NCBI GenBank assembly: GCA_035084275.1 | Contig: CM068743.1 | Coordinates: forward strand, 74,400,001 to 74,464,000 | Source of the DNA: Hydrolagus colliei | Taxonomy: Eukaryota | DNA: 64,000 nucleotides | Direction: 5' to 3' | In this document: positions 13,569 to 62,488 of the stretch, in pieces | Position numbering within the stretch: position 1 is the first letter of the stretch | How the letters are laid out: each line of letters starts with the position of its first letter | Made by a program: the position numbers and the translations under genes | Notes under the pieces: model-generated | Seen by the model: the letters and a program-made list of their open reading frames with translations, nothing else | Told to the model about the DNA's origin: nothing | Database searches by the model: none

Positions 13569-16500
13569 TGTACAGCCATGCTGAAGTGTCTCAAAGTCCT
13601 CCATGGATTTTCCTGTGAAGTGAAACAAACTCAAAACAAATTTATTTGAGCATGAATGCTGCAGCCAATTTACCCACAGCAAACAAGCTTTTAAGCTACA
13701 GTACGGATTGAACCAAGTCTTTGTGTTTCTACTGAGGCCTGCCTGGAACACTAATTGAATCCCATTTTCATTACATAATGGTTGGGGAAACGTAATTGAA
13801 TTGCTAACCAAATTCAATTTACTTGAACCCTCAGAGGGTCACCTATCCCATTTATATATAATTCTGTCTGTGCACTGCAAGTTATTTTTCTTTTGCATCA
13901 GTGCATCAGTGGAGGTGATAATCACCTTGCCGTTCAGTATAGCCACTTCTTCCTCCTAATTCAGTGGCGTAACTAAAATTCCACTCTGATGGTTTCAAGG
14001 GACAAAATATTAAGAGCCGTCTAAATAGATTTGAGTCATGCCTGCTCCTGATGGTCCACACTCCTTGATCAATATAATTTTAGGGAATAAAGTTTGTAGC
14101 ATTCCTTTAGTACCAGTTTAAACTGCTGTCAACAAAATAACATCTCACCTTTTGAGGTAAATGTTTCTCATTTTCTGGTATCAATACCCCAAATTTGACC
14201 TGATGGTTATTGCTTTTGTAAATTTGAGGCCCTATATCGGACTCTGAGTTGCTTAGATCTACATAGACTTTTTTCGCACAGAAACATGCCATTCGGCCCA
14301 ACTAGTTTGTGCCTGTATTCATACTCCACACGAGGCTTCATTTCCTGAAGAACGTATTCTTTCCAACAGAGAGTTGTTGAGATTTGGAACACCTTGCCAA
14401 GTGAGGGGATAGAGACAGATTGGGTTTGAAGAGCGAAGTTGATAAGTACCATATATGAATATTTTACTGAACAGCCTGTTCAATCCGTAAAACATTACTT
14501 TTTCGGTTAAGAATACAAATATCGCTCTACCATGGCAGAAACAACGCCGGAAGATAAATATTCAACAAGACCATTTACTTGCACTCTGATGTAGTGCCTA
14601 AAATTTACACAAAGAAAAATTGCCCATCCTACAGATTGAATAAAAATGGCAGAATAAAACTTGCAAACCACTTGCATTAAAGGGTGAGCTGGTAAGTGAC
14701 AGTCAATGTTAGCGTAACTTAAGAAACACCGCCAATTTTACCCTGAATGTATCTTTCAGATCATGATCTGCAGAAATCAGGCTTCAAAGTTAAGACTTGA
14801 TTCAAGAGTTTGCAAAATTCTGGACACCATAAAGTGTTACATAAATATCATAAATCTTTGACACTCTAATTTCTTTGATAGGCAGAAGTGCTGCTATTCT
14901 CATGATCTTTGATGCTAATTGCTTAATATCTTGAATGTCATAGAACATGTCAGTCCATTTCCGCCCGAACCTCATGCTAACCACCTCTAGCTATCTGCAA
15001 TGTGACCTGCGTAAGTAATGGCAGTAAGCACTGTTTGATATTTTGTTCAAGTAGGAGCTGCCTGTTCACAGATTTAATCAGAATATCACTCTTAATCATC
15101 CTTGCCTAGTGCAAATTGCATAAATATCAAATCACATAAATGCATTATTAAAGATTTTTAAGAAGGCTTCAGGACAGGAAAATCCATCAAGAGTGAAACA
15201 GATATTTTGCACTGGTGGTAGTCAAACGGTCATTCCATCTACATTGGTGTGACAAGAAAGTGCTCTTATTTTATTCCATATCACTGAGGTTTCTTGTTAT
15301 CGAAGATCAAAGTGTTGAAACCAATTCTGCATGAACAGTGGAAACCAGTTTACAGGTCCATTTTGATCAGATTGCAGTACTGTAAATTAATCCTGCTCTA
15401 CATATGAAATATGAGGAATTATTTTGTTCCCAGTGTTCAGTGCAGCAAATTATTTAATGTGGGCTAATTGGTTTTCTTTACAAAATCCAGCAAACAACAA
15501 CACATTACATTTATATTGTGCTTTTTCTGTCTGAAGAAAGTCCCAAGATGCTGGATAGTTAAGGGTTTGCACCCAAGCTGGGAGTTGGAATGAGGAAGGT
15601 GGGGGAACTAGGGGTGGAATAAACTAATTTGCCCCATGCACATATGATTATAATGCAATGCTGCATCTTATTGTTTCATTTGATTTATAAAGTCATTATA
15701 TTTTCAGTTGAAGTACACTAACTTACCAACACATTTTGGCAACTTTGCTAACCTCAATAAAACACAGCAAAGAAGTGCTGAATCCCCCCAAATTTGCTAC
15801 AGGGTTGGATAACCTCTTTGTACCTTTAAATACTAACATTGAACATTAAACCAGTGGTTACCATTTCCAAGAGAGTTCCTGCAAGAAGAAATGAAACATA
15901 TCTCTTCACAGTAGATCCATATTAAATTGCTTCGTGTCAATTATCCCAGGTTCCATCACCAACAACAACAACATAATTACATTTATAGAGCGCCTTTCAT
16001 GTCGGGAGATCGTCCCAAAGTGTTGACCAGCCAATCTACTCTGTTTAAATTCCAGATTCCTAATTACCGAACTATTTTTTGCTCTTTGTAGTTAACAGTT
16101 TCTTTATAAAATTGGCAAAGGGAACAAACAAAAAGCCTAAAAAGGCCTTGAAGATGATTTACATGTAAATTACATACAATAATGATCATCATGATATCAT
16201 CACTGCACTTTACAGAAAATTGAGACATCCTTGTTCCTTTTTGATCATGCCTTCTTCTGCACTCCGACCTCTCTCCCTCTCCTCCAGTCTACCTTGCCCC
16301 TCCCCCATGCTTGAGTCCCAACCCCAGCGCCTTGGGACGTCCTCCCGACATGAAAGGCTCTCTGTAAATGTAATTTTACTGTTGTTGTTGTTGTTGTGAG
16401 CAGTCTTGATTTGGTGATTCAGTGCAACTAGCTGTGCCAGATCTTAAAACTTTATATGCCAGTTAAAAAGTAATACCTCTAATACCTTTGCCATGTTAAA

Positions 16501-16788: not shown

Positions 16789-17011
16789 GTAAGGTGATCA
16801 ACATCAGACACTCTTTCTCATGTTGTGTAGCCCTCTGGTGAGATCGCTCATTTGGTTCGGTTGTTTGATGTGTTTTACATACAAAGAAAGATGCCAATAA
16901 AGTGTATTTGCTGGCAAATGTGGAGTGAGTGTAAATATTGTATACAGTATGCACAGTGGTCAAGTACTCGTGAATTATTTTTGTGGTCACTGCAGTTTGT
17001 GTATTCCACTT

Positions 17012-17350
17012 GAGCTCCTGTGGCTCAGTGGTTAGAGCACTTGTCTTGCAAGCTGGGGAGACCAAGCTGGGGAGACCTGTGTTCGAATCCGGGCAGGTCA
17101 GGGCGAAACCTTGGGCAAGTTTCCTTACTCCACATGCCTAATAATAATCCCTCCAAAAAAACCCACAATAGTAAAATTGGTCATTTCAATCCACGACTGT
17201 GTGTGGGACACTGCTGTGCGCATATGGCTGCCGCGATTCGCCCACAAATATATACAGTCAATTCACTTTACAGTATATTCTGTGAAGCGCTTTGGGACGT
17301 TGATAAAATGTGGAAAGCACTATATCAAATGCAAGGATTATTATTATTAT
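17012..17350 (+). mobile_element. tRNA-derived SINE, full length, with a small internal duplication (caagctggggagac x2)
   Basis: A/B boxes, shared body, (TAT)n tail. Confidence 0.9.
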
Positions 17351-24070: not shown

Positions 24071-24397
24071 GTTCTAGTTGCAATATTCATGTTTAACATA
24101 TTGTACAAACCCTGCTGCTGAAATAATTTTTTTACCTTTGCCACCAAATCTTCAGCGATATCTGCGCTGTTAGACAGATATTGAGATAATAATAATCTTT
24201 GCATTTGATATAGCGCCTTTTCTCGAAGCACTTCACAGATTATAATGTGAAGTAAATTGTATGTATATTTTGTGGGTGAGATAATAGGATTTTCATTCAA
24301 GCCTTGTTAACATTTTGCTTCCTTACTTCTAATTTGTAAAAACTGAATGTTGATAGATTTATGGCACTAAGTTTCCTTATTCATGCCACCAATGTGT

Positions 24398-24624
24398 GGA
24401 GTCCTGCAGCTCAGTGGTTAGAGCACTCGCCTTATAAGCGTGAGACCTGTGTTCGAATCCAGGCAGGTCAAGGTCAATCCAGGACTGTTTGTGGGATACT
24501 GCTGTGCACAATTGGCTGCCGCGTTTCGTACAGTCAATTCACTTTACAGTATATTCTGTGAAGTGCTTTGAGATTTCTAGAAGACGTGAAAAGCGCTAAA
24601 TCAAATGCAAGGATTATTATTATT
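24398..24624 (+). mobile_element. tRNA-derived SINE with an internal deletion
   Basis: Head joins directly to ggtcaatccaggactgtttgtggg; tail intact. Confidence 0.85.
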
Positions 24625-28392: not shown

Positions 28393-28485
28393 ATCAAAGC
28401 TCACGAGGGCAGCTATGGTTTTGCACTTGAGGAGAGGAACAAGGTACCTATTGTGAAGTCTGTGGAGAAGGGATCTTATACTGAG
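28393..28485 (+). CDS. PREX2: PREX2 exon (~17), PDZ1: [31 protein letters not shown]
   Basis: tctatag|ATC ... TGAG|gtaagt; 93 nt. Confidence 0.95.
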
Positions 28486-32212: not shown

Positions 32213-32480
32213 GGTTACCGCTCGGTAGTCCGAAGGTTCTTTAGTCCGAAGCTTCCCCTAGCCCTAACCCTAACCTTAACCCTAACCTTTGGACTAATGA
32301 ACCTTCGGACTATCGCACCAAATGTTCGGATTAACAAACCGTATTTCATTGTCGGTTCGGACTATCGAGCGGTAACCACGGTAACTGCCCCAGGTATAGG
32401 AAATTTGTGTGTTCGGACTATCGAACCTTTGGACTAATGAACCTTCAGACTATCGAACCTTTGGACTATCGAGTGCCCCC
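32213..32480. mobile_element. Foldback/MULE-like non-autonomous element, 268 bp
   Basis: 9-bp direct repeat TGGGGGGAC at 32204-32212 and 32481-32489; GG...CC ends; inverted arrays of ~15-bp TAGTCCGAAGGTTC(G/T); internal (CCCTAA)n. Confidence 0.75.
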
Positions 32481-32739: not shown

Positions 32740-32769
<30 letters not shown>

Positions 32770-33071
32770 TTTTGCATTTGATATAGCGCTTTTCACATCT
32801 TATCGACGTCCCAAAGCACTTCACAGAATATACTGTAAAGTGAATTGACTGTATATATTTGTGGGCGAATCGCGGCAGCCAATTGCGCACAGCAGTGTCC
32901 CACACACAGTCATGGATTGAAATGACCAATTTTATTATTGTGGTTTTTTTGGAGGGATTATTATTAGGCATGTGGAGTAAGGAAACTTGCCCAAGGTTTC
33001 GCCCTGACCTGGCTGGATTCGAACACAGGTTTCCCCAGCTTGCAAGATAAGTGCTCTAACCACTAAGCCAC
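32740..33071 (-). mobile_element. tRNA-derived SINE, antisense, long (AAT)n tail, inserted in an L2 tail
   Basis: Very similar to the 17012 copy; splits the L2 tail tttcta|tagaggcgcc. Confidence 0.9.
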
Positions 33072-33833
33072 ATAGAGGCGCCTTTCACGTCGGGAGGACA
33101 TCCCAAGGCGCTGAACAGTCAGGTCGGGACCCGAGCAAGGGTAAGGGGCAGGGGAGGGGGGAGGTATGAGGGGATGGAGAGAGTTGAGAGGGCAACAGAA
33201 GGCACAGTTGAAGAGGAGGATCTTGAGACCGCCTTGAAGGAGGCGAGGGAAGGAGCGTTGAAGGGACTATGGGATGGAGTTCCAGCTTGGGGGCAGAGAG
33301 GCTGAAAGCCTGTCCGCCGATGGTAGGGCGGGTTGGGCGGGGACATAGAGCAAGCTATGAGCCTGCTGAACTGAGAGGGTGGGGAGATTCATAGGGGGAC
33401 AGCAGGTTGGAGAGGTAAGGGGGTGGGGTCAAGGCCATGAATGGCCTTGAAGGTGAGGATGAGCATCTTGAATTTGATCCTCTGGGGATGGGTGCCAATG
33501 CATCCGGGCGAGGGTGGAAGTGATGTGGTTGCGGAGCTTGGTGCGGGTGAAGACATGAGGTCCAGAGTTCTGGATGATATGAAGCTTCTGAAGGGAAGAA
33601 CCAGGAAGGCCGACGAGGAGGGAGTTTCCATAATTGAGCCTTGATGTGACGAATGCATGGACAAGGGTTTTGGCAGCCTGAGGAGTGAGGCAGTGGCGGA
33701 GTTCGGTGATGTTGCGAAGGTGGTGGAAGACAGTACTGGCCATGTCGCAAATGTGGGGCTGGAAGGACAGTTCAAGGCGAAACAAGACGCCCAGGTTCCT
33801 GACTTGCTTATAGAGGTGGAGAGTGCAGCCTTG
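33072..33833 (-). mobile_element. L2 LINE 3' ~0.8 kb with frameshifted ORF2 C-terminus
   Basis: VRNLGVLF...LVHAFVTSRLNYGNSLLVGLP...LHIIQN; the end of its tail lies at 32714-32740. Confidence 0.9.
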
Positions 33834-34364: not shown

Positions 34365-34658
<294 letters not shown>

Positions 34659-35582
34659 TAAACAGATGGCTGACAGCTGTGCTTGGAGGCCAGTCAAAGG
34701 TAGATTATATTCACATGGCTACTGTTTTAAACCAAATGCAATGCTATGGATAGTGATGCTTTTTCTTTGCATTTTGCAGGTGTTAATTTATACTCAGTAT
34801 GTGTACTGTATACAAGTGGCCAATATTTATTAGTTTTAAAGACTTGCTGTCAATGAGAGAACAAACCTAATTTGTTGTAGGCAGAAGACCATACAACACA
34901 CAAACCAATATTTTTCGGCAAACGTGCCACTTCAGCAAAGATCCATCTATTCTCACATAATGGATGCTTGTTCTTCAAACAAACAGTTGTGATTTTTTTT
35001 GTGAATAAGCAGCCAGTGACATGTGGCGGTAGTTGAGACGATCGATTGAGTCACAAAATATATAGTTAACAGCTGTTGAAAATTGGATTTTCTGTGGTAC
35101 AATTTACAATCAACCAAATAATGCAGTGATTTTAATATCGAAGGGAAACATTTCTAAGGAATCTTAATTCATCAATGAATTGCATGTTCATTAATTTAGT
35201 TGCGGTCGTTGAGTACTCGTCTTTTTAGCAAACTGTTGACAGTTCTGGATCCAGAGTCCGCTCGTCGTGGCTCATTTAGTCTCATCTGTTTGCAGTTCGG
35301 CTGTTGGATCGAGGGTGTAACGCACCTCAGCATTTATGAACATATTGATAGAGTCTGAGGAACACCCTCTTGTGGTGGTTGAGCATGGGGACTATTTAAG
35401 GTCTGACAGGTAGACTCTTATGCTTGTTTTGGTTGAGGTAAAATAAACACAATAATCTTTTTCTTGGGAGAAATGTTATATGTGGTGTGCAGGTGTGGGT
35501 GCCTATCTCAAGGCTCAAGAATGTACCAGAATTCGGTAGAGAGTGTGAAACAATCTGAAGCATCATTTCAACCAGGATAATA

Positions 35583-35830
35583 TTGGCCTCAGTCAGTAGC
35601 ACTCAGGTCAGAAGTTGGTGAATTCAAGCCCCATGTCATGGTTTGAACTCATACTCTACTGACTGACTCTCCAGTGCAGTGCTGGGGGAGTCTTTGCATT
35701 GTCAGAAGTGATGTCCTTTGGAATAGACTGTGGTGCTGTTTCCTTTCTCTCAAGTGGGTGCTGAAGATCCTGTGATACTATTTGAAGAGAGGTTTTCAAT
35801 AATGTCCTGACCTATAATCCTCCCATTGAA
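35583..35830 (+). mobile_element. Old Deu-domain SINE fragment
   Basis: ctccagtgcagtgctgggggagt..tgcattgtcagaagtg..., aagatcctgtgatactatttgaaga. Confidence 0.7.
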
Positions 35831-36052
35831 TTAATCATTCACCTCTTACACCGCAGCCCCAAAACAAGGAGAAAAATGTGGAATTCAGTGTACTTCCTTA
35901 TCCAACCTCAAAGGTCAAGGACCGTTGCAAATACAGTAGCTTTTAAATGCTTCTAAACTCTCGCTGGGGTGTGGTTTGGTTTGGATAGATGCCCTTGGCC
36001 ATTGTACCTAGAACTTGGTGCAAAGTGCAATAACAAACCCATCAATCTTTTG

Positions 36053-36101
36053 ACTTTACATGAAACATGCTTAAAAATAACTTTACACGAAACATGCTTA
36101 A
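36053..36101. repeat. 22-bp near-tandem duplication
   Basis: actttaca(t/c)gaaacatgcttaa x2 with a 5-nt spacer. Confidence 0.85.
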
Positions 36102-38582
36102 CCTCTCCAAGAGAGTTATTGTCTAAAGGAATACTTTCAGTTTACCACAGTGTGCTTCTTATGTACACTGATCCATATCAGTAAAAGATGCACATCTCTG
36201 TCTCATCTGTTTTCTGCCCTTAATGTCACCAGCCGTGCTGAGCCATGCTCATTGGCAAAGTGTCAAACAGCTTAGGTTTCACTTGTTCGAGCAGCTAATT
36301 AGAATTTAAATAACATCTGATCAAATGCCTTCGCTTACAGTCTTGAGTTTAAGGTGGCAGTGGAGTGGTGCCACATGTTTGCTTGAATGTGCAAAGACCT
36401 TCACTGTCATCACTCTAAACGTATGAGGATGAGAACAACCAAATGATTACTAAGATCTATCGCTCGTTGATCACTGAAACAAATATATAAAACTGATACT
36501 TTTTAGTGATCTACAGTAAATAGATCCCAGTTACAGCCTGCCTGTTTTTAGATGGTTGGAATAACACATTATTTAATTATCAGATATTTGCTACTGCTTC
36601 TCTCCAGGCAGCGGCTCTCGAGGTTTGTCTCAACTGGAATTTCCCACTGCTCTCTTCCCTTCTTTAAATCCTAAGAAAAGCCTTGGACAAGCTGCTCATG
36701 TAACTTGTTGAACTCTGGCCATTGGCTTTTGTTTTTAAAATATTAAAATCATTCTCACTCATAAAATCTGTCTGGAGGAGCATATATTGGTCAACGATGT
36801 AATTTTCAAGTGTCTTTTAGTAGACAGTGTCTCCGCCTCCTCCTCATCCTGATGGTACACAGCACTAGAACACAACCCTCTGTACTTTAATTCAAAGGGC
36901 AAACAATGAAGTCTCTCACTCCTCGGAAATTGCATGCCAAGAAATGACTGGAAAAGCTTCCAACTGTCAAACCTTTGGCACAGTGCAAATAAATCTGCCT
37001 TTCTAACCCTCTGGCACTTAGGCTGTCCATTTAAAGGTTTCTTCCTCCATTTCATTAGTTTGATCATATTTCTCTTCAGAAATCAGATTGATTTCCAGGC
37101 ACCAGCCTCCTCCCTCCCCACCCCACCCCATCCCACCCCTTGTGATGGGCTCGGGAAACAAAACATCTAGACCTGCTTTTGAATTTGAATTTGGTGTATT
37201 CAAGGAGATACTGGTACTAACCTGGCCTGAGTGAGCTTTGGGCCTCCAGAGCAACGCAGCATTTATTAAACGCTCTTTTAACTGTTAGCAGGCGGGTCTC
37301 CCTTCCTTCCTAATCCATTCATATCACACTGATATACAGCTTTCATGACTCATGGGGAGATGTATTGCTCTCTTGTTAATTTTGTGACAAGTGACGTTTA
37401 ACCCCAATTATCTTGCAGTTGTTCCACTTGATTTCATTGGAGCAGTATGAAAGATTTCAAATGAGATTGAGAAAGTAAACCCAGAACAATGGTTTTGCAT
37501 GCACCAAGAGAGCTAAACAGGAGGACATATGGTTGCAAAGTACAATTTCGGAACAGACATAGGGATGTGTTTATTTACCCAGATCAAAATTAACAACAAT
37601 AACTTGCATTTATTTACCGTCCTTTAGGTGGGGCAGTGTCCTGGATCGCTACATAATTTTTTTTATGAAAGAAACAGATTGCCAGGAAGGGGCAGTTGAG
37701 GCCAGGGCACTGGACAAAAGTTGGATCAAAATGCAGAAATTACACAGCCATATCTTGGCTTGCAAGAACTTGGATTGTTTGCACAAAAATTCTGCCCTGC
37801 AAAATTGTGAGAGAAATTTCTGTCAATGACCGTCCAGCGCCTTGGACATCCTTCTGACGTGAAGGGAGTGTACTTTTGTTGTTGTTATTGTTGTCAATTA
37901 AAATCCCTCATTTCCAAATGCTCAGCTTATGCTGAATCATATGGTAGCTATTTATTCACTTCTTCAGTGATCATTAATAGAAATCTGATCCTCACAGAAA
38001 CATCCACTGGCAAGATGTGAAGAACTATGCAATAACAACAACAATGAAATTATACTTGTGTAGCGCCTTTCACATCAGGAGGACGTCCTAAGGTGCAATA
38101 CTCAGCCTTCAAGCTTTCAAACGATAATAATCTTTGAAGACTGATAATTGTCTCCATCAGTCTAAAATAGATCATCTTCCAAATTTCCATGCTGAAGCCT
38201 TTTTTTTCTTAAGATAGAACACTTAAACATTTAACTTAAGAAAGGCATGGAAACAAAACGTAATGAACTTGCTCACTCTGTTCGACCAAACGCTTACACA
38301 GAGTACCTTTCAATGCCTGGAGGGTACAGCACAGACACAGTGGAGGGAGCATTGTGTATGTGAGTACATGTAGTTATTTTTTAAAGTTGTAAACCACTTT
38401 GTAAGGGAGCAGTGTGGCAAGAAGGCTGCTGCAATGTCATTTCCTACAACAACAACAAAATTACATTTGTAGAGTGCCTTTCACGTCGGGAGGACGTCAG
38501 GAGGTGCTGCACATAAGCAGAAAGTGTCATCAAGTGAGCCTGCTCTAAGGGGCACATCGCTCTCACACTAACGGTAATATGT

Positions 38583-38903
38583 GGAGCTCCTGTAGCTCAG
38601 TGGTTAGAACACTCACCTTATAAGCGTGAAACTTATATTTGAATCCAGGCAGGTCAGGGCGAAACCTTGGGCAAGTTTCCTTACTCCACACGCCTTATAA
38701 TAATCAGTCCCTCAACAAAAACAACAATAATAAAAATTGGTCATTACAATCCACGACTGTTTGTGGGACACTACTGTGCACAATTGTGCTGTGTTCTGCC
38801 CACCAATTTACAGTCAATTCACTGTACAGTATATCCTTTGAAGCGCTTTGAAACGTCGATAAGATGTGAAAAATGCTGTATCAAATGCAAGGATTATTAT
38901 TAT
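38583..38903 (+). mobile_element. tRNA-derived SINE
   Basis: A/B boxes, shared body and tail. Confidence 0.88.
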
Positions 38904-40393
38904 CACCTTCTGTACATGTGGATGACAGCACCATCCTTTTATTACCACTTCCTTTAATAATTGCTACTTTTTTTTCAAACAAAATGCCTCTCAAATGTGG
39001 CCTTGTTGGAGGAAAGAAAAATCTACGTGCGCTGTTAATGAACAACAATTCGTAAACCAAGATATACTCCTGAAAACTTACAATGTATCTACAGTGGCCA
39101 ACAGGGCTGCACTGACATCCCTTTGGACACTCATGTGAACATATCATCAATACTGCACACAAGTGAGGGACAGAAAGTGACCATCAAAATAACAATGCTG
39201 AACTTCAAACTGGAAGAAAAACAATGTTTGCTTTCACAAACCAATGCACAGTTTCAACCTACACTGGGATACACTACCTCATTCCAACATTTCTTTTATG
39301 TAAATGGCACCAGGGCTATTATTGCCTGTCCTGGGACAGACATTTTGGCCTACCTAGAAACAATCAATTTCTGAAATGGACTTAAATTGAATTTACATTC
39401 TTTCTGCGTAAACTTCAAATTTAAGACAGTGGTCTGAATGCTAAAACTGAGAAATTTCGAGACCATGGTATGCAAGAGAAAAAACAGAAAGAAGTTCAGG
39501 GAAGTGCATCCTTTTAGGAGCATTATTTAGGAAACCAGTTAAACCAATTCCCTGAGCAATTGTGTTTAATTGCAGTTACCATCCAGTGAAACCTCCTTTT
39601 TATTTTTAGAGTATAAATCAAGCTGTCCTTAGCACTGAAATTAAATTATTCATCAGGTCTGTGTTAAATGCGAATGAAAAACGTCAGAGGTTGATTGCTG
39701 ATGTATTAAAATGCTGTCGTAGTTGGTGTGCTTCTAATTTGGAAATGTAACCTAATGTGAATATCTGGAACATGGATTCTGCCTAAATAACAATATTTCT
39801 GGCTTGTTTTTTGTATTGGAGAAGCAGTCCCTGGGCCCTTGAATGGCATCAGTATTTCAACTCTGCCTGTAATGATTAGATAAATGCGTCTTAATATTCT
39901 AGGTGAGGGACAGGAACGTTTGCTGACCAAAGAAGTTTTTATTGAAAGCAATCTCTGATTAAGGTAGAGAAAAGTCACAATGCTAGACATGGAACAAACT
40001 CCATTACCTTGTAGTTGTTGGCTTTCTGATTGGGATGTAATCAACCGGTCTGACTTTTATGTGGATATATGTCTGTTAATCATGGGTTCGCTCACTCATG
40101 CATTCGTCACATCAAGGCTTGACTACGGGAATTCACTCCTCGTCGGCCTTTCCAGCTCTTCCCTTCACAAGCTGCAGATCATCCAAAACACTGCATCCTA
40201 TGTCCTCTCCCGCACTAGGCTCTGCGACCCATCACTCCCACCCTTGCCTGGCTCCATCAGCTCCCATCCCCCAGAGGATCGAATTCAAGATCCTCAACCT
40301 CACTTTCATATAAAAACACTTATTGTTAGTGCCATGGTACAGAAATAACAGGCTGGAGTTATTTGAATATTTCAATAAATATTTACAATACTG

Positions 40394-40582
40394 AAAGGTG
40401 GTGGAGGCCGATTTGATAACAACTTTTAAAAGAGAGGTAGACATTTATTTGGGGAGGACGGGTTTGCATGGTTATGGGGAGGAAGCTGGGGAGTGGGATT
40501 GAATTGCTCTTTTCAATGAGCCAGCACAGACTCGATGGGCCAAATGGCCTCCTTTTGTGCTGTAAGATTCTATGATTCTATG
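40394..40582 (+). mobile_element. CR1 LINE 3' end
   Basis: gatgggccaaatggcctccttttgtgctgtaagattctatgattctatga. Confidence 0.85.
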
Positions 40583-40902
40583 AACACCACAATACTCCTT
40601 GCATTTGATTTTACGCCTTTCATATCATAAGAACAGAAGCTCTTCACATGTCATCAATTTCGGCACAATCCTACACATACATTCCAATAAAGACCTAAAA
40701 TGTAAATAAATGTTATGTATGTTTCTGTTAAACTAATAATTTGAGGTGTCACTCTGGCTCAGTTGGTATCCCTCTTGCTTCTAAATCAGAAAGTTGTGGG
40801 TTCATGTTTAAACTCATATAGTCTTGGTGTGCTATCCTTTAGATGAGACGTTAAACTGAGCTCTTGTCTGCTTGTTTAGTTGTACAGTAAAACCTGGATA
40901 AT

Positions 40903-41400
40903 CATGAAGTCCTGAGGCTCAGTGGTTAGAGTACTTGCCTTACAAGCGTGAGACCTGTGTTCAAATCCATGCAGGTCAGGTCGAAACCTTGGGCAAGTTT
41001 CCTTACTCCACATGCCTAATAATAATCCCTCCAAAAAAACACAATAATAAAATTGGTCATTTCAATCCACGACCATTTGTGGGACACTGCTGTGCACAAT
41101 TGGCTGCTGCGATTCGCTCACAAATATACAGTCAATTCACTTTACAGTATATTCTGTGAAGTGCTTTGAGACAGCACTAAAGCTAAACTATGCCTGAGCT
41201 CCACCCACAGCATCGAGTGACAGAGCAGCCATGCCAGGAACTACAAGCTGCTGTTCCAAATTTCAGGAGATTTGCTGGACATCGGAAAAAAATCTAATAG
41301 TGTTTTCATTTTTAAATCTTGCCGGTTATCGGAATGTCGAATTATCCAGGTTCTAGAAGACATGAAAAGCGCCATATCAAATGCAAGGATTATTCTTATT
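40903..41400 (+). mobile_element. tRNA-derived SINE inserted in a Tigger-like MITE, carrying an inverted flank copy in its tail
   Basis: Head at ~40908; ATAAT repeated at 40898-40902 and 41401-41405 (probable TSD). Confidence 0.88.
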
Positions 41401-41575
41401 ATAATTCGACATTCCGATAACCGGCAAGATTTTAAAATGAAAACACTATTAGATTTTTTTCCGATGTCCAGCAAATCTCCTGAAATTCAGAACAGCAGCT
41501 TGTAGTTCCTGGCATGGCTGCTCTTTCACTCGATGCTGTGGGTGGAGCTCAGGCATAGTTTAGCTTTAGTGCTGT
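41171..41575. repeat. 175-bp inverted repeat (41171-41345 / 41401-41575) with a 55-nt spacer
   Basis: Arms are reverse complements with about 4 mismatches by eye; the ORF track shows mirror ORFs at 41241..41474(-) and 41272..41505(+). Confidence 0.97.
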
Positions 41576-41855
41576 ATTTACAGCCCACGTGGTGTATGGG
41601 GCAGGGCTTCCCCAGCCATTTCTAGGTATGTTCTGAATACCGGCAAACTCAGGCAGGTGAGTGGGCCTGACCGTGCTGGATTATCAAGGTTTTACTGTAT
41701 TTTAAAGATCTCATCACACTATTCAGTAAAACAAGGGAGTTTCTCCTACTGCTGGCAAACTTTCCCCCAGATAATATTGGTCGTTCACTCCATGGTAAAA
41801 CTGTTAAGCGCACCAGGACGCTGTATGATGCTTTTTAAACACAAGTTAAGAGCAC

Positions 41856-42012
41856 AAGAACATAAGAATTAGGAGCAGGAGTAGGCCATTTGGCCCCTCA
41901 AGCTTGCCCCACCATTCAATAAGATTATGGCTGATCTTCTAATCTAACTCCACCTACCCGCCTTATCCCCATATCCCTTAATTCCTTTATCCACAAGAAA
42001 TCTATCAATCTC
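41856..42012 (-). mobile_element. CR1-type LINE 3' end
   Basis: aagaacataagaattaggagcaggagtaggccatt, the reverse complement of the 13443 family. Confidence 0.8.
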
Positions 42013-42282
42013 ATTTGTTGTCGATGGTGGTTGTTCAGCGCCTTGGGAAGTCCTCCCAACGTGAAAGGTGTTTTCTACAAATGTAATTTTGTTGTCATTG
42101 TTAGTGTTGTTGGTTACAGGACAACTAAGTGTACAGATTGGTTGCCGTGTAAGCATACAAAATATAGTCACTACAGTCATTACAATATATCACGTGAAGC
42201 GTTTTGAGACATTCTCCCTGATGTGAAAGATGCTATATCAAATGGAAGCATTATTATTATTTATTATTATTATGTTCTATAG

Positions 42283-42419
42283 GAACCGTGGCAGCAGTAG
42301 CTGGTCTGCATCCTGGCCAGTGCATCATCAAAGTAAACGGGATCAACGTGAGCAAAGAGAGTCACGCAAGTGTGATCGCTCATGTCACAGCGTGCAGAAA
42401 ATACAAACGCCCTTCTCAG
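42283..42419 (+). CDS. PREX2: PREX2 exon (~20), PDZ2: (G)[45 protein letters not shown]
   Basis: tctatag|GAACC ... TCAG|gtaagc; 137 nt. Confidence 0.95.
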
Positions 42420-44289: not shown

Positions 44290-45005
44290 TTTGATGGTCC
44301 CATTGGCAACTCCTAAACCACCCCCTTCCCTCCCCCCACCCATCCCCAGCTTGGGTCTGAAACAGTGACTGTCCAGCACCTTGGGACATCCTCCTGACAT
44401 GAAAGGCGCTTTGAAAGTGTCATTTTGTTGTTGATGTTTCCTGATATCCAAGGATGCTGTTCTGCCTGGACACCTTGGTGGAGAGGAGTTCTTGCTGGTC
44501 AACATACATGGGGTTCCCTGCAAGAGAGGCACTATACTTGATGTGCTTTTCAGGTTCAGCAACATCGACAGCAATTTGTACTGCTACAGGCACCTTGCAA
44601 CAACAACAACAACACTTTTATAGCGTCTTTCACATCAGGAGGAAGTCCCAAGGTGCTGGACAGTCATTGTTTCAGACCCGAGCTGGGGACAGGGAGGTTG
44701 GAGGAAAAGGAAGGGATTTGGAGTGGCCGATGGGACCGTCGAAGAAGAAGATCTTGAGGCGGGACTTGAAGGAGGCCAGGGTGGGGATGAGGCAGAGGGA
44801 CTGCAGGATGGAGTTCCAGAGGTTGGGGGCAGTGTGGCTGAAGGATAACCCGCCAATGGTGGGTCAGGTGGGGCGGGGGACGTGGAGCAGGCCGGAGCCT
44901 GCTGAGCAGAGGAGGTGGGCAGGTTGGTAGGAGGTCGCAGATGTAGGGTGTGGTGAGGCCATGGAGGGCTTTGAATGTGAGGACGAGGATCTTGAATTGG
45001 ATCCT
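44290..45005. mobile_element. Two tail-to-tail L2 3' fragments (+ at ~44290-44432, - at ~44598-45005)
   Basis: Mutually reverse-complementary tails; [18 protein letters not shown] on the - strand. Confidence 0.85.
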
Positions 45006-58849: not shown

Positions 58850-60000
58850 CTGGTGGTCACTGCACTTAACCTCACCAAGCCTAAGTGTCTTGTTCGATGT
58901 TCAACTCTTTTTCCTCTCCCACATCCAAGCCATGAGACACTGCCATCCCTCACCTCTGCAACATTGCCTAACTCAGCCACAGCCATTACCTCAGCTCTCA
59001 GGCTACTGAAACTCTCACAATGCCTTCTTCATGTCTAGGCTCGATTACGCCAATATCCTGCTTGTTGGCCTTCCACCTCCTCTCTCCATAGGCTGTAGAT
59101 CATCCAGAATCCTGCAGCCTGTGTCCTCTACTGTAGCAAGCTCCGCAACTCCATTACCCCATTCTCACCTGACTCCGTTGGCTCCCTATCACCCAGAGGT
59201 TTCAATTCAAGATCCCGGTCCTCACCTTTAAACAACAACAACAAAATTGCACTTATATAGAGCCTTGAAGGAGGAAAGGAGAAGTGAGGCGGAGGGGCTG
59301 CGGGATGGAGTTCCAAAGTGTGGGAGCAGAGAGGCTGAATCCCAGCCGCCGATGACTGGGCGGTTAGGGCAGTGGATGTGGAGCAGGCCTGGGTCCGCTG
59401 AACAGAGGTGCGGGCAGGCTGATAGGGAGACAGTAGATCAGAGAGATTGGTGGGGGCAAGGCTGTGAATGGCCTTGAAAGTGAGGACAAGGATCTTGAAT
59501 TCGATCCTCTGGGTGACGGGGAGCCAGTGGAGATGGGCAAGGGTGGGAATGATGTGGTCGCGAAGCCTGGTACGGGAGAGTACACGAGCTGCAGAGTTCT
59601 GAATGAAAGCCCTCCAAGGCCTTGCCCTATTCTACCTCTGGGATCTCCTAACCCTCTATCAACCTGCCCGCTTTCTCTGCTCAGTGGGCTTCGGCCTGCT
59701 CCACATCCCCTGGCTTGCCCACCCCACCATTGGCAGACAAGTCTTTAGCCACTCTGTCTCCAACCTCTGGAATTCCATCCCGTAATCCCTTTGCTTCGCC
59801 CCTCCCTCCTTCAAGACACTCCTCAAGACCCTCCTCTTCGACGGTCCCATTGGTCACCCCATCTCCCTTCCTTTCCCTCTACCCTCCCTGATCCTGATCC
59901 CAACCCCAGCTCGAGTCTGAAAACACTGACTGTCCAGTATCTTGGGACATCCTCCCGACATGAAAGGCATTCAACAAGTGTAATTTTGTTGTTGTTGTTG
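58850..60000. mobile_element. L2 (+) interrupted by an antisense L2 (~59232-59601)
   Basis: SRLDYANILLVGLP; ctcacctttaaa|...|aaagccctcca resumes after the insert. Confidence 0.85.
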
Positions 60001-62215: not shown

Positions 62216-62488
62216 CAGTAAAACCTTGATAATCCAACATTCTGAAATTCGGCAACTCCCTAAAACCGGCAAGATTTCAAAATACATAAAGTATTGGATT
62301 TTTTCCGATGTCCTGCAAATCTTCCACAGTTCGGAACAGCTGCTTGTGGTCCCTGGAGTGGCCGCTCGTGGTGTATGGGGGGGAGGGGAGCTTTCTTAGA
62401 CATTTCTAGGTAGATTCTAAACACCGGAAAACTCGGAAATACTGGAGGGGAGTGGGCTCAACCGTGCCGGATTATCAAGGTTTTACTG
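62216..62488. mobile_element. Tigger/pogo-like MITE, 273 bp, same family as 40885
   Basis: Perfect 20-bp TIR CAGTAAAACCTTGATAATCC and TA TSD. Confidence 0.9.

Follow-up and report, generated by a model that had tools for sequence, protein, structure and literature searches.

An Inverted Copy of Its Own Target Site inside a SINE in a PREX2 Intron: a Likely Copying Slip at Insertion

How can a SINE come to hold, near its own 3' end, an inverted copy of the very site it entered, and that site in the state it had without the SINE? The question is raised by a SINE of 320 nt situated in PREX2, within the window (the whole stretch of 64,000 nucleotides that was analysed). The insert is likely a rare copying slip made when the SINE was inserted; slips of this kind are known from human LINE-1.

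The elements concerned lie in a 7.7-kb intron (34615–42282) between two + strand exons. The upstream exon (34529–34614, +; 86 nt, AG/GT), found by motif scan with splice sites taken from the sequence, has a PDZ-type GLGF motif and is putatively assigned to PREX2; the downstream PREX2 exon (42283–42419, +; 137 nt, AG/GT) was matched to PDB 9zq7_A with E 3.1e-22. A third + strand exon (28393–28485; AG/GT), with a PDZ-type motif as in 34529–34614, is likewise a putative PREX2 exon. The Pfam search, run on 42 of the 143 ORFs of the window, gave no match above the cut-off.

The target of the SINE was a non-autonomous DNA transposon (MITE, 40885–41697, no strand assigned; 310 bp when counted without the SINE) with terminal inverted repeats (TIRs), flanked by TA duplications at 40883–40884 and 41698–41699; the earlier note had put the SINE (40903–41400) inside a MITE, and the bounds found here bear this out. 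A second copy at 62216–62488, also with TA duplications, was used as outgroup; it is without a 65-bp segment and has 17 bp extra near its left end. MITEs of the Tc1/mariner type are short, with terminal inverted repeats and a TA duplication; both window copies agree with this description, and "Tigger-like" is a putative label. The TIR pattern gave two matches in metagenome contigs (20–28 nt each), dismissed as chance. On the PREX2 sense strand, adjoining the hairpin described below, a donor-like site (41654–41661) is located in the MITE and an acceptor-like site (41760–41770) just past it; both are candidate sites only.

The SINE entered the MITE 13 nt from the left end of the latter and is flanked by a 5-bp target-site duplication (TSD; 40898–40902 and 41401–41405, both +). 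It is divided into a 5' part (40903–41173, +), with a tRNA-derived head at 40908–40979 and first 2 nt that are probably extra bases, and a 3' part (41352–41400, +; 49 nt), which makes up the hairpin loop and consists of the remainder of the 3' stem-loop and an (ATT)n tail. The head scored 31.9 bits with the Rfam tRNA model (gathering score 29), tRNA alone among nine Rfam matches being above its gathering score; ARAGORN gave tRNA-Ala at two of its three hits in the window. Another 21 SINE pieces of at least 120 nt align in the window. One of the copies (24397–24624) has an internal deletion of ~80 bp, 24397–24475 corresponding to 40905–40982 and 24474–24573 to 41062–41171. The copies 32758–33072 (−) and 17011–17348 (+), 5.1% apart, form a distinct younger subfamily; in the tRNA head of the latter, 14 bp are perfectly duplicated in tandem (17049–17077).

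Between the two parts of the SINE lies the insert (41171–41352, −; 182 nt including both microhomologies, unique part 41174–41351), which forms the left arm of a hairpin. Its donor, the right arm, is the MITE segment 41401–41575 (+), as defined by the inverted-repeat alignment: arms 41171–41345 and 41401–41575, 175 nt, 98% complementary, spacer 55 nt. Among the 17 inverted pairs of the whole window (at least 30 nt, within 1.5 kb) this one is both the best matched and the longest, the other 16 being weaker. Three of these (44326–44706, 15954–16396 and 59158–59734; 60–95 nt, 73–83% complementary, 190–300 nt apart) are probably old MITEs or opposed repeat ends. At 32223–32472, near a 16-bp tandem array, a telomere-like CCCTAA run (32256–32287) separates the two arms of an inverted pair of 32 nt.

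The arms differ at four of the 175 positions (41221/41525, 41257/41489, 41258/41488 and 41313/41433), the second and third of which represent one CpG decayed reciprocally; the CG is kept in the MITE copy 62216–62488, so both arms have mutated independently. The inverted duplication of ~175 bp in the SINE tail, and the roughly four arm differences with one reciprocally decayed CpG, had been pointed out in the earlier note and stand, the number of differences being exactly four.

The insert is the reverse complement of 40891–40902 joined to 41406–41575, that is, of the target without the SINE. Its gap-free match to the present locus ends at 41345; beyond the 5-bp duplication it carries 7 nt more, identical in 7/7 positions to the left flank 40891–40897 (+), and therefore joins the two flanks of the insertion point directly, with no SINE between them. 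The probability of such a match by chance is 4.4e-5 (composition-weighted), or 1.5e-4 if the base shared with the SINE is excluded; between 40600 and 42000 this 7-mer occurs at two places only, the insert end and 40891–40897. The claim that the insert copies the uninterrupted pre-insertion target is thus upheld by the 7 nt running into the left flank. The right TIR was ruled out as origin of these bases (6/7 against 7/7 for the left flank), as was a simple foldback on the primer strand, which cannot supply them.

The SINE continues after the insert with 0–1 bases lost, and neither a duplication nor poly(A) was found around the insert; the sequence runs uninterrupted across the break site in 10/10 other motif-matched SINE copies. 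At the right junction the microhomology is 1 nt. At the left it may be 3 nt without loss, or 2 nt with one base lost or wobble-paired, because at 41173 G in place of A is frequent in the family (window copies: four CG, four CA, one TT); in contigs of the sequencing runs X1, X5 and X6, 41172 is joined to 41352 with G between. Of the earlier claim, ACA and T microhomologies without loss of SINE bases, the T is thus retained and the left half becomes 2–3 nt with 0–1 bases lost. The break site falls in the 5' arm of the inner stem of the 3' stem-loop predicted across 10 copies, a weakly supported structure in which one of 12 pairs shows a two-sided change. A recurrent composite family of SINE plus insert had been feared; the SINE–MITE join occurs once in the window and the loose ends found genome-wide at 41171–41173 continue as plain SINE, which speaks against such a family, although rare composites may exist.

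On this evidence the insert was probably formed as a templated insertion during retrotransposition, with the SINE's own target site as the template. The template switch onto the intact target that had been proposed is supported to the extent that local templated copying is the best explanation and that size and position agree with the class known from L1; its assignment to reverse transcription is weakened by arms that look three to five times younger than the SINE, and by a hop between TSD copies that gives the same letters without an empty allele. Formation at integration is favoured over later repair because of rough priors, both inferred from human data: ~0.6% per insertion for the templated class against ~1e-4 per 320-bp SINE for a later repair duplication, the latter resting on 0.19–0.65 per Mb of TE (PMC2671141) and taken before extra coincidences are counted.

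The course of a switch during retrotransposition might be as follows. The LINE enzyme would prime at the target and copy 49 nt, up to the inner stem of the SINE 3' stem-loop; the growing strand would then quit the SINE template, copy an uncut copy of the target and return to the next unpaired base, the register being held by the still-annealed hybrid. Integration would be completed normally, with the 5-bp duplication, and the arms would later diverge at four sites, perhaps slowed by arm-to-arm conversion. For a switch of the first strand the template would be the sister chromatid or the homologue: the insert has top-strand sequence on the cDNA strand, so that an intact bottom strand is required, and the bottom strand is the one nicked for priming. 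This restriction to sister or homologue, absent from the earlier note, would apply to the first strand alone, and a first-strand switch would moreover depend on 1 nt of microhomology, which counts against it. A second-strand switch would need an intact top strand, and could use the uncut top strand, the sister, the homologue or PREX2 pre-mRNA, the sense of which would fit. That the second strand jumped to the pre-insertion PREX2 pre-mRNA, or to the target strand before that strand was cut, and rejoined its SINE template at exactly the right base, leaving a frozen intermediate, is a tentative proposal of rather low probability.

A joint origin of SINE and insert would give both arms the age of the SINE itself; the arms, however, appear three to five times younger. 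The SINE shows 17, 15 or 11 changes from the window majority in 304 sites, depending on the counting scheme, and the arms 4 in 350 (SINE/arm ratios 4.9, 4.3 and 3.2; p 0.0017, 0.0051 and 0.041); the three schemes differ in doubtful sites, that with 11 changes leaving out four CpG calls in addition to two rows dropped before. For non-CpG changes alone the values are 6/274 and 2/326 (ratio 3.6, p 0.15); for CpG decay, 8/14 in the SINE and 2/12 in the arms (p 0.051). The window copy closest to this SINE is 7.1% away. Two escapes from the mismatch may be considered. SINE subfamilies outside the sample may be one: the copies ending at 33072 and starting at 17011 differ by 5.1%, less than either differs from the majority (6.4% and 8.1%, respectively), so that distance to the majority can overstate the age of a SINE. 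Homogenisation of the arms may be the second, template switching being described as homogenising the arms of inverted repeats (PMC8604942).

The younger arms are consistent with a later event in cis, the most credible of the rivals and nonetheless improbable: a break or stalled fork at the 3' stem-loop of the already fixed SINE would have been patched by copying the right flank backwards, the polymerase hopping from the right to the left TSD by their 5-nt homology, copying 7 nt and returning. A hop between the TSD copies rebuilds the "empty site", so no empty allele is needed. Of the 182 nt, 175 fit the 1-4-3-2 type of template switch, which accounts for 31% of human–chimp events (PMC5453318); the duplications left by repair in interrupted TEs have a mean length of 162 bp, and 20 of 1,136 are chimeras with two donors (PMC2671141), and multi-piece templated insertions are described at yeast breaks (PMC11724301). 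Three switches are needed, however, one of them exactly at an AT-only 5-mer that is found seven times on the + strand of 40600–42000, and the rough prior, as far as it can be inferred, is far under that of formation during retrotransposition.

Contigs were used to follow the locus in other material. Those of four of the 22 runs listed, which include no RNA run, were aligned to the one-arm stretch 40100–41400 at 90% likeness; the SINE family dominates these alignments (82,840–247,701 records per run). In organism D the stretch 41200–41331 is left uncovered, a gap that carries no weight either way. In organism A the SINE 5' junction is spanned unbroken by contigs from two individuals, one in each of two studies (X1, possibly the assembly's own sample, and X5), covering 40557–40948 (one difference) and 40557–40937 (no difference); the SINE is therefore present, and no empty allele was seen, in these two individuals. 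This bears on another rival, repair copied from the homologous chromosome at a time when the SINE still segregated as a presence/absence polymorphism, which is held to be unlikely. Such repair would offer a true empty-site template with just two switches, and homologue templates were proposed by the authors of PMC2671141. The polymorphic period is short, however, and the local organism A contigs differ from the window at 3 of 1,061 letters (four pieces), less than the clock gap, so that the age mismatch would be left in place; that the copy stops 7 nt from the site would have to be a coincidence; and the junction is unbroken in the contigs of both individuals, contigs being apt to drop rare variants.

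An origin from another, near-identical MITE copy elsewhere in the genome is given equally little credit. Other family members align on the arm at 90% likeness in contigs of X1, X5 and X6, and the comparison in full covers one other copy, 62216–62488 in the window. The insert is 97.7% identical to the local MITE copy, whereas the local and the second window copy mismatch in 52 of 248 columns. The insert has several features in common with the local copy: both carry G in the left TIR, at a position where T stands in 3/3 other TIRs of the window; both have T after the TSD; and relative to 62216–62488 both show a 17-bp gap and an additional 65-bp segment. Since other members exist at 90% likeness, these common features may be subfamily traits. 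A distant donor would have had to land 49 nt from an element of its own family and to cover the SINE site exactly, and is made improbable by this position. An assembly artefact, through a foldback read or mixed haplotypes, is scarcely credible: among the pieces listed for the four runs none bridges the insert junctions (41173, 41352) and the best-matching runs contain just 0.75–0.79 of the sampled words, but the arms differ at four sites, with the reciprocal CpG decay polarised by the outgroup MITE copy, a foldback would yield identical arms and would not split the SINE in register, and neither individual shows an empty allele; on such internal grounds the insert appears real and an artefact unlikely.

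The hairpin ends 708 nt before the downstream exon, in accordance with the ~700 nt noted earlier. The RNA is predicted to form a stem of 175 bp in which pairing is uninterrupted over stretches of 50, 35, 54 and 32 bp (−369 kcal/mol, z −39.5), and from this fold the hairpin is a candidate ADAR/Dicer substrate. In the Rfam search, the miRNA and sRNA matches were all below threshold and reflect the hairpin itself. Hairpins of miRNAs can arise by template switching (PMC10710096); the present one is probably a neutral by-product, for which no function is suggested.

One locus settles little, and templated insertions have already been described. In the integration of LINEs and SINEs it is still disputed whether the second nick precedes or follows second-strand synthesis. 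An insert that crosses the target site requires a template that is uncut while integration proceeds; a collection of such inserts would put limits on this order or reveal the use of sister chromatids or pre-mRNA. Genomes of this kind hold hundreds of thousands of related SINEs, which makes a genome-wide search cheap. Were the frozen-intermediate reading true, SINEs carrying their own pre-insertion site would be a class countable genome-wide, second-strand synthesis could start before the second nick, and long intronic hairpins would be seeded in one step.

Among known systems the nearest are the templated insertions of human L1, 22 of which were found among ~3,600 somatic insertions, with templates typically <250 bp and no more than 15 bp from the site; the model is credited there to earlier cell-culture work (bioRxiv 10.1101/2024.08.27.596794). 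As in that class, the present retroelement is a chimera with a copied genomic segment, here of 182 nt, spanning the site and ending 7 nt past the TSD. It works like the class, as what looks to be a fixed germline counterpart among SINEs, and is not a member of it: the element is a full-length tRNA-derived SINE of 320 nt and not L1, germline and common to two individuals; the template crosses the site and the SINE resumes in register. In the L1 class the insertions are somatic events in humans, mostly with 5' truncation. For the SINE insert the timing at integration is deduced. Three insertions whose extra sequence was copied from DNA close to the site are given in PMC11702581, and foldbacks of 52–220 bp together with one co-inserted nearby pre-mRNA at L1 sites in PMC10191854. 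The foldback inversions of these two sources resemble the present case as inverted target duplications of 52–220 bp tied to retro-insertion; as described, they lie at the 5' junction, whereas the SINE insert is internal, 49 nt from the 3' end. Zebrafish L2 elements are reported to add flank-templated extra nucleotides (PMC4760211). The SINE itself resembles, by description alone, the CmiSINEs SINE2-1_CM and SINE2B-1_CM (PMC5499810), a very abundant family with an Ala-tRNA-like head and an L2-derived tail, and this likeness is a lead.

Interrupted TEs commonly contain repair-mediated duplications (824 proximal human cases, mean 162 bp; PMC2671141). The locus shares with them a TE interrupted by at least 50 bp, a comparable insert size, a donor within 5 kb, microhomology and the lack of TSD and poly(A) at the insert; unlike theirs, the donor here adjoins the TE and skips it, and the gap of ~50 nt equals their exclusion limit. 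As set out in that source, the class asks for a genome-unique donor and an uninterrupted orthologous TE; the donor here is in a multi-copy MITE. The 1-4-3-2 switch (PMC5453318) is alike in that the strand leaves, copies the opposite strand downstream, returns and makes an inverted repeat; it differs in that a single fragment of the present locus cannot yield the last 7 nt. In the literature covered, which leaves most subscription journals outside, no SINE case spanning its own empty site was found. Judged by these comparisons, the germline SINE with a templated insert crossing its own target site looks like a variant of the known class of templated insertions.
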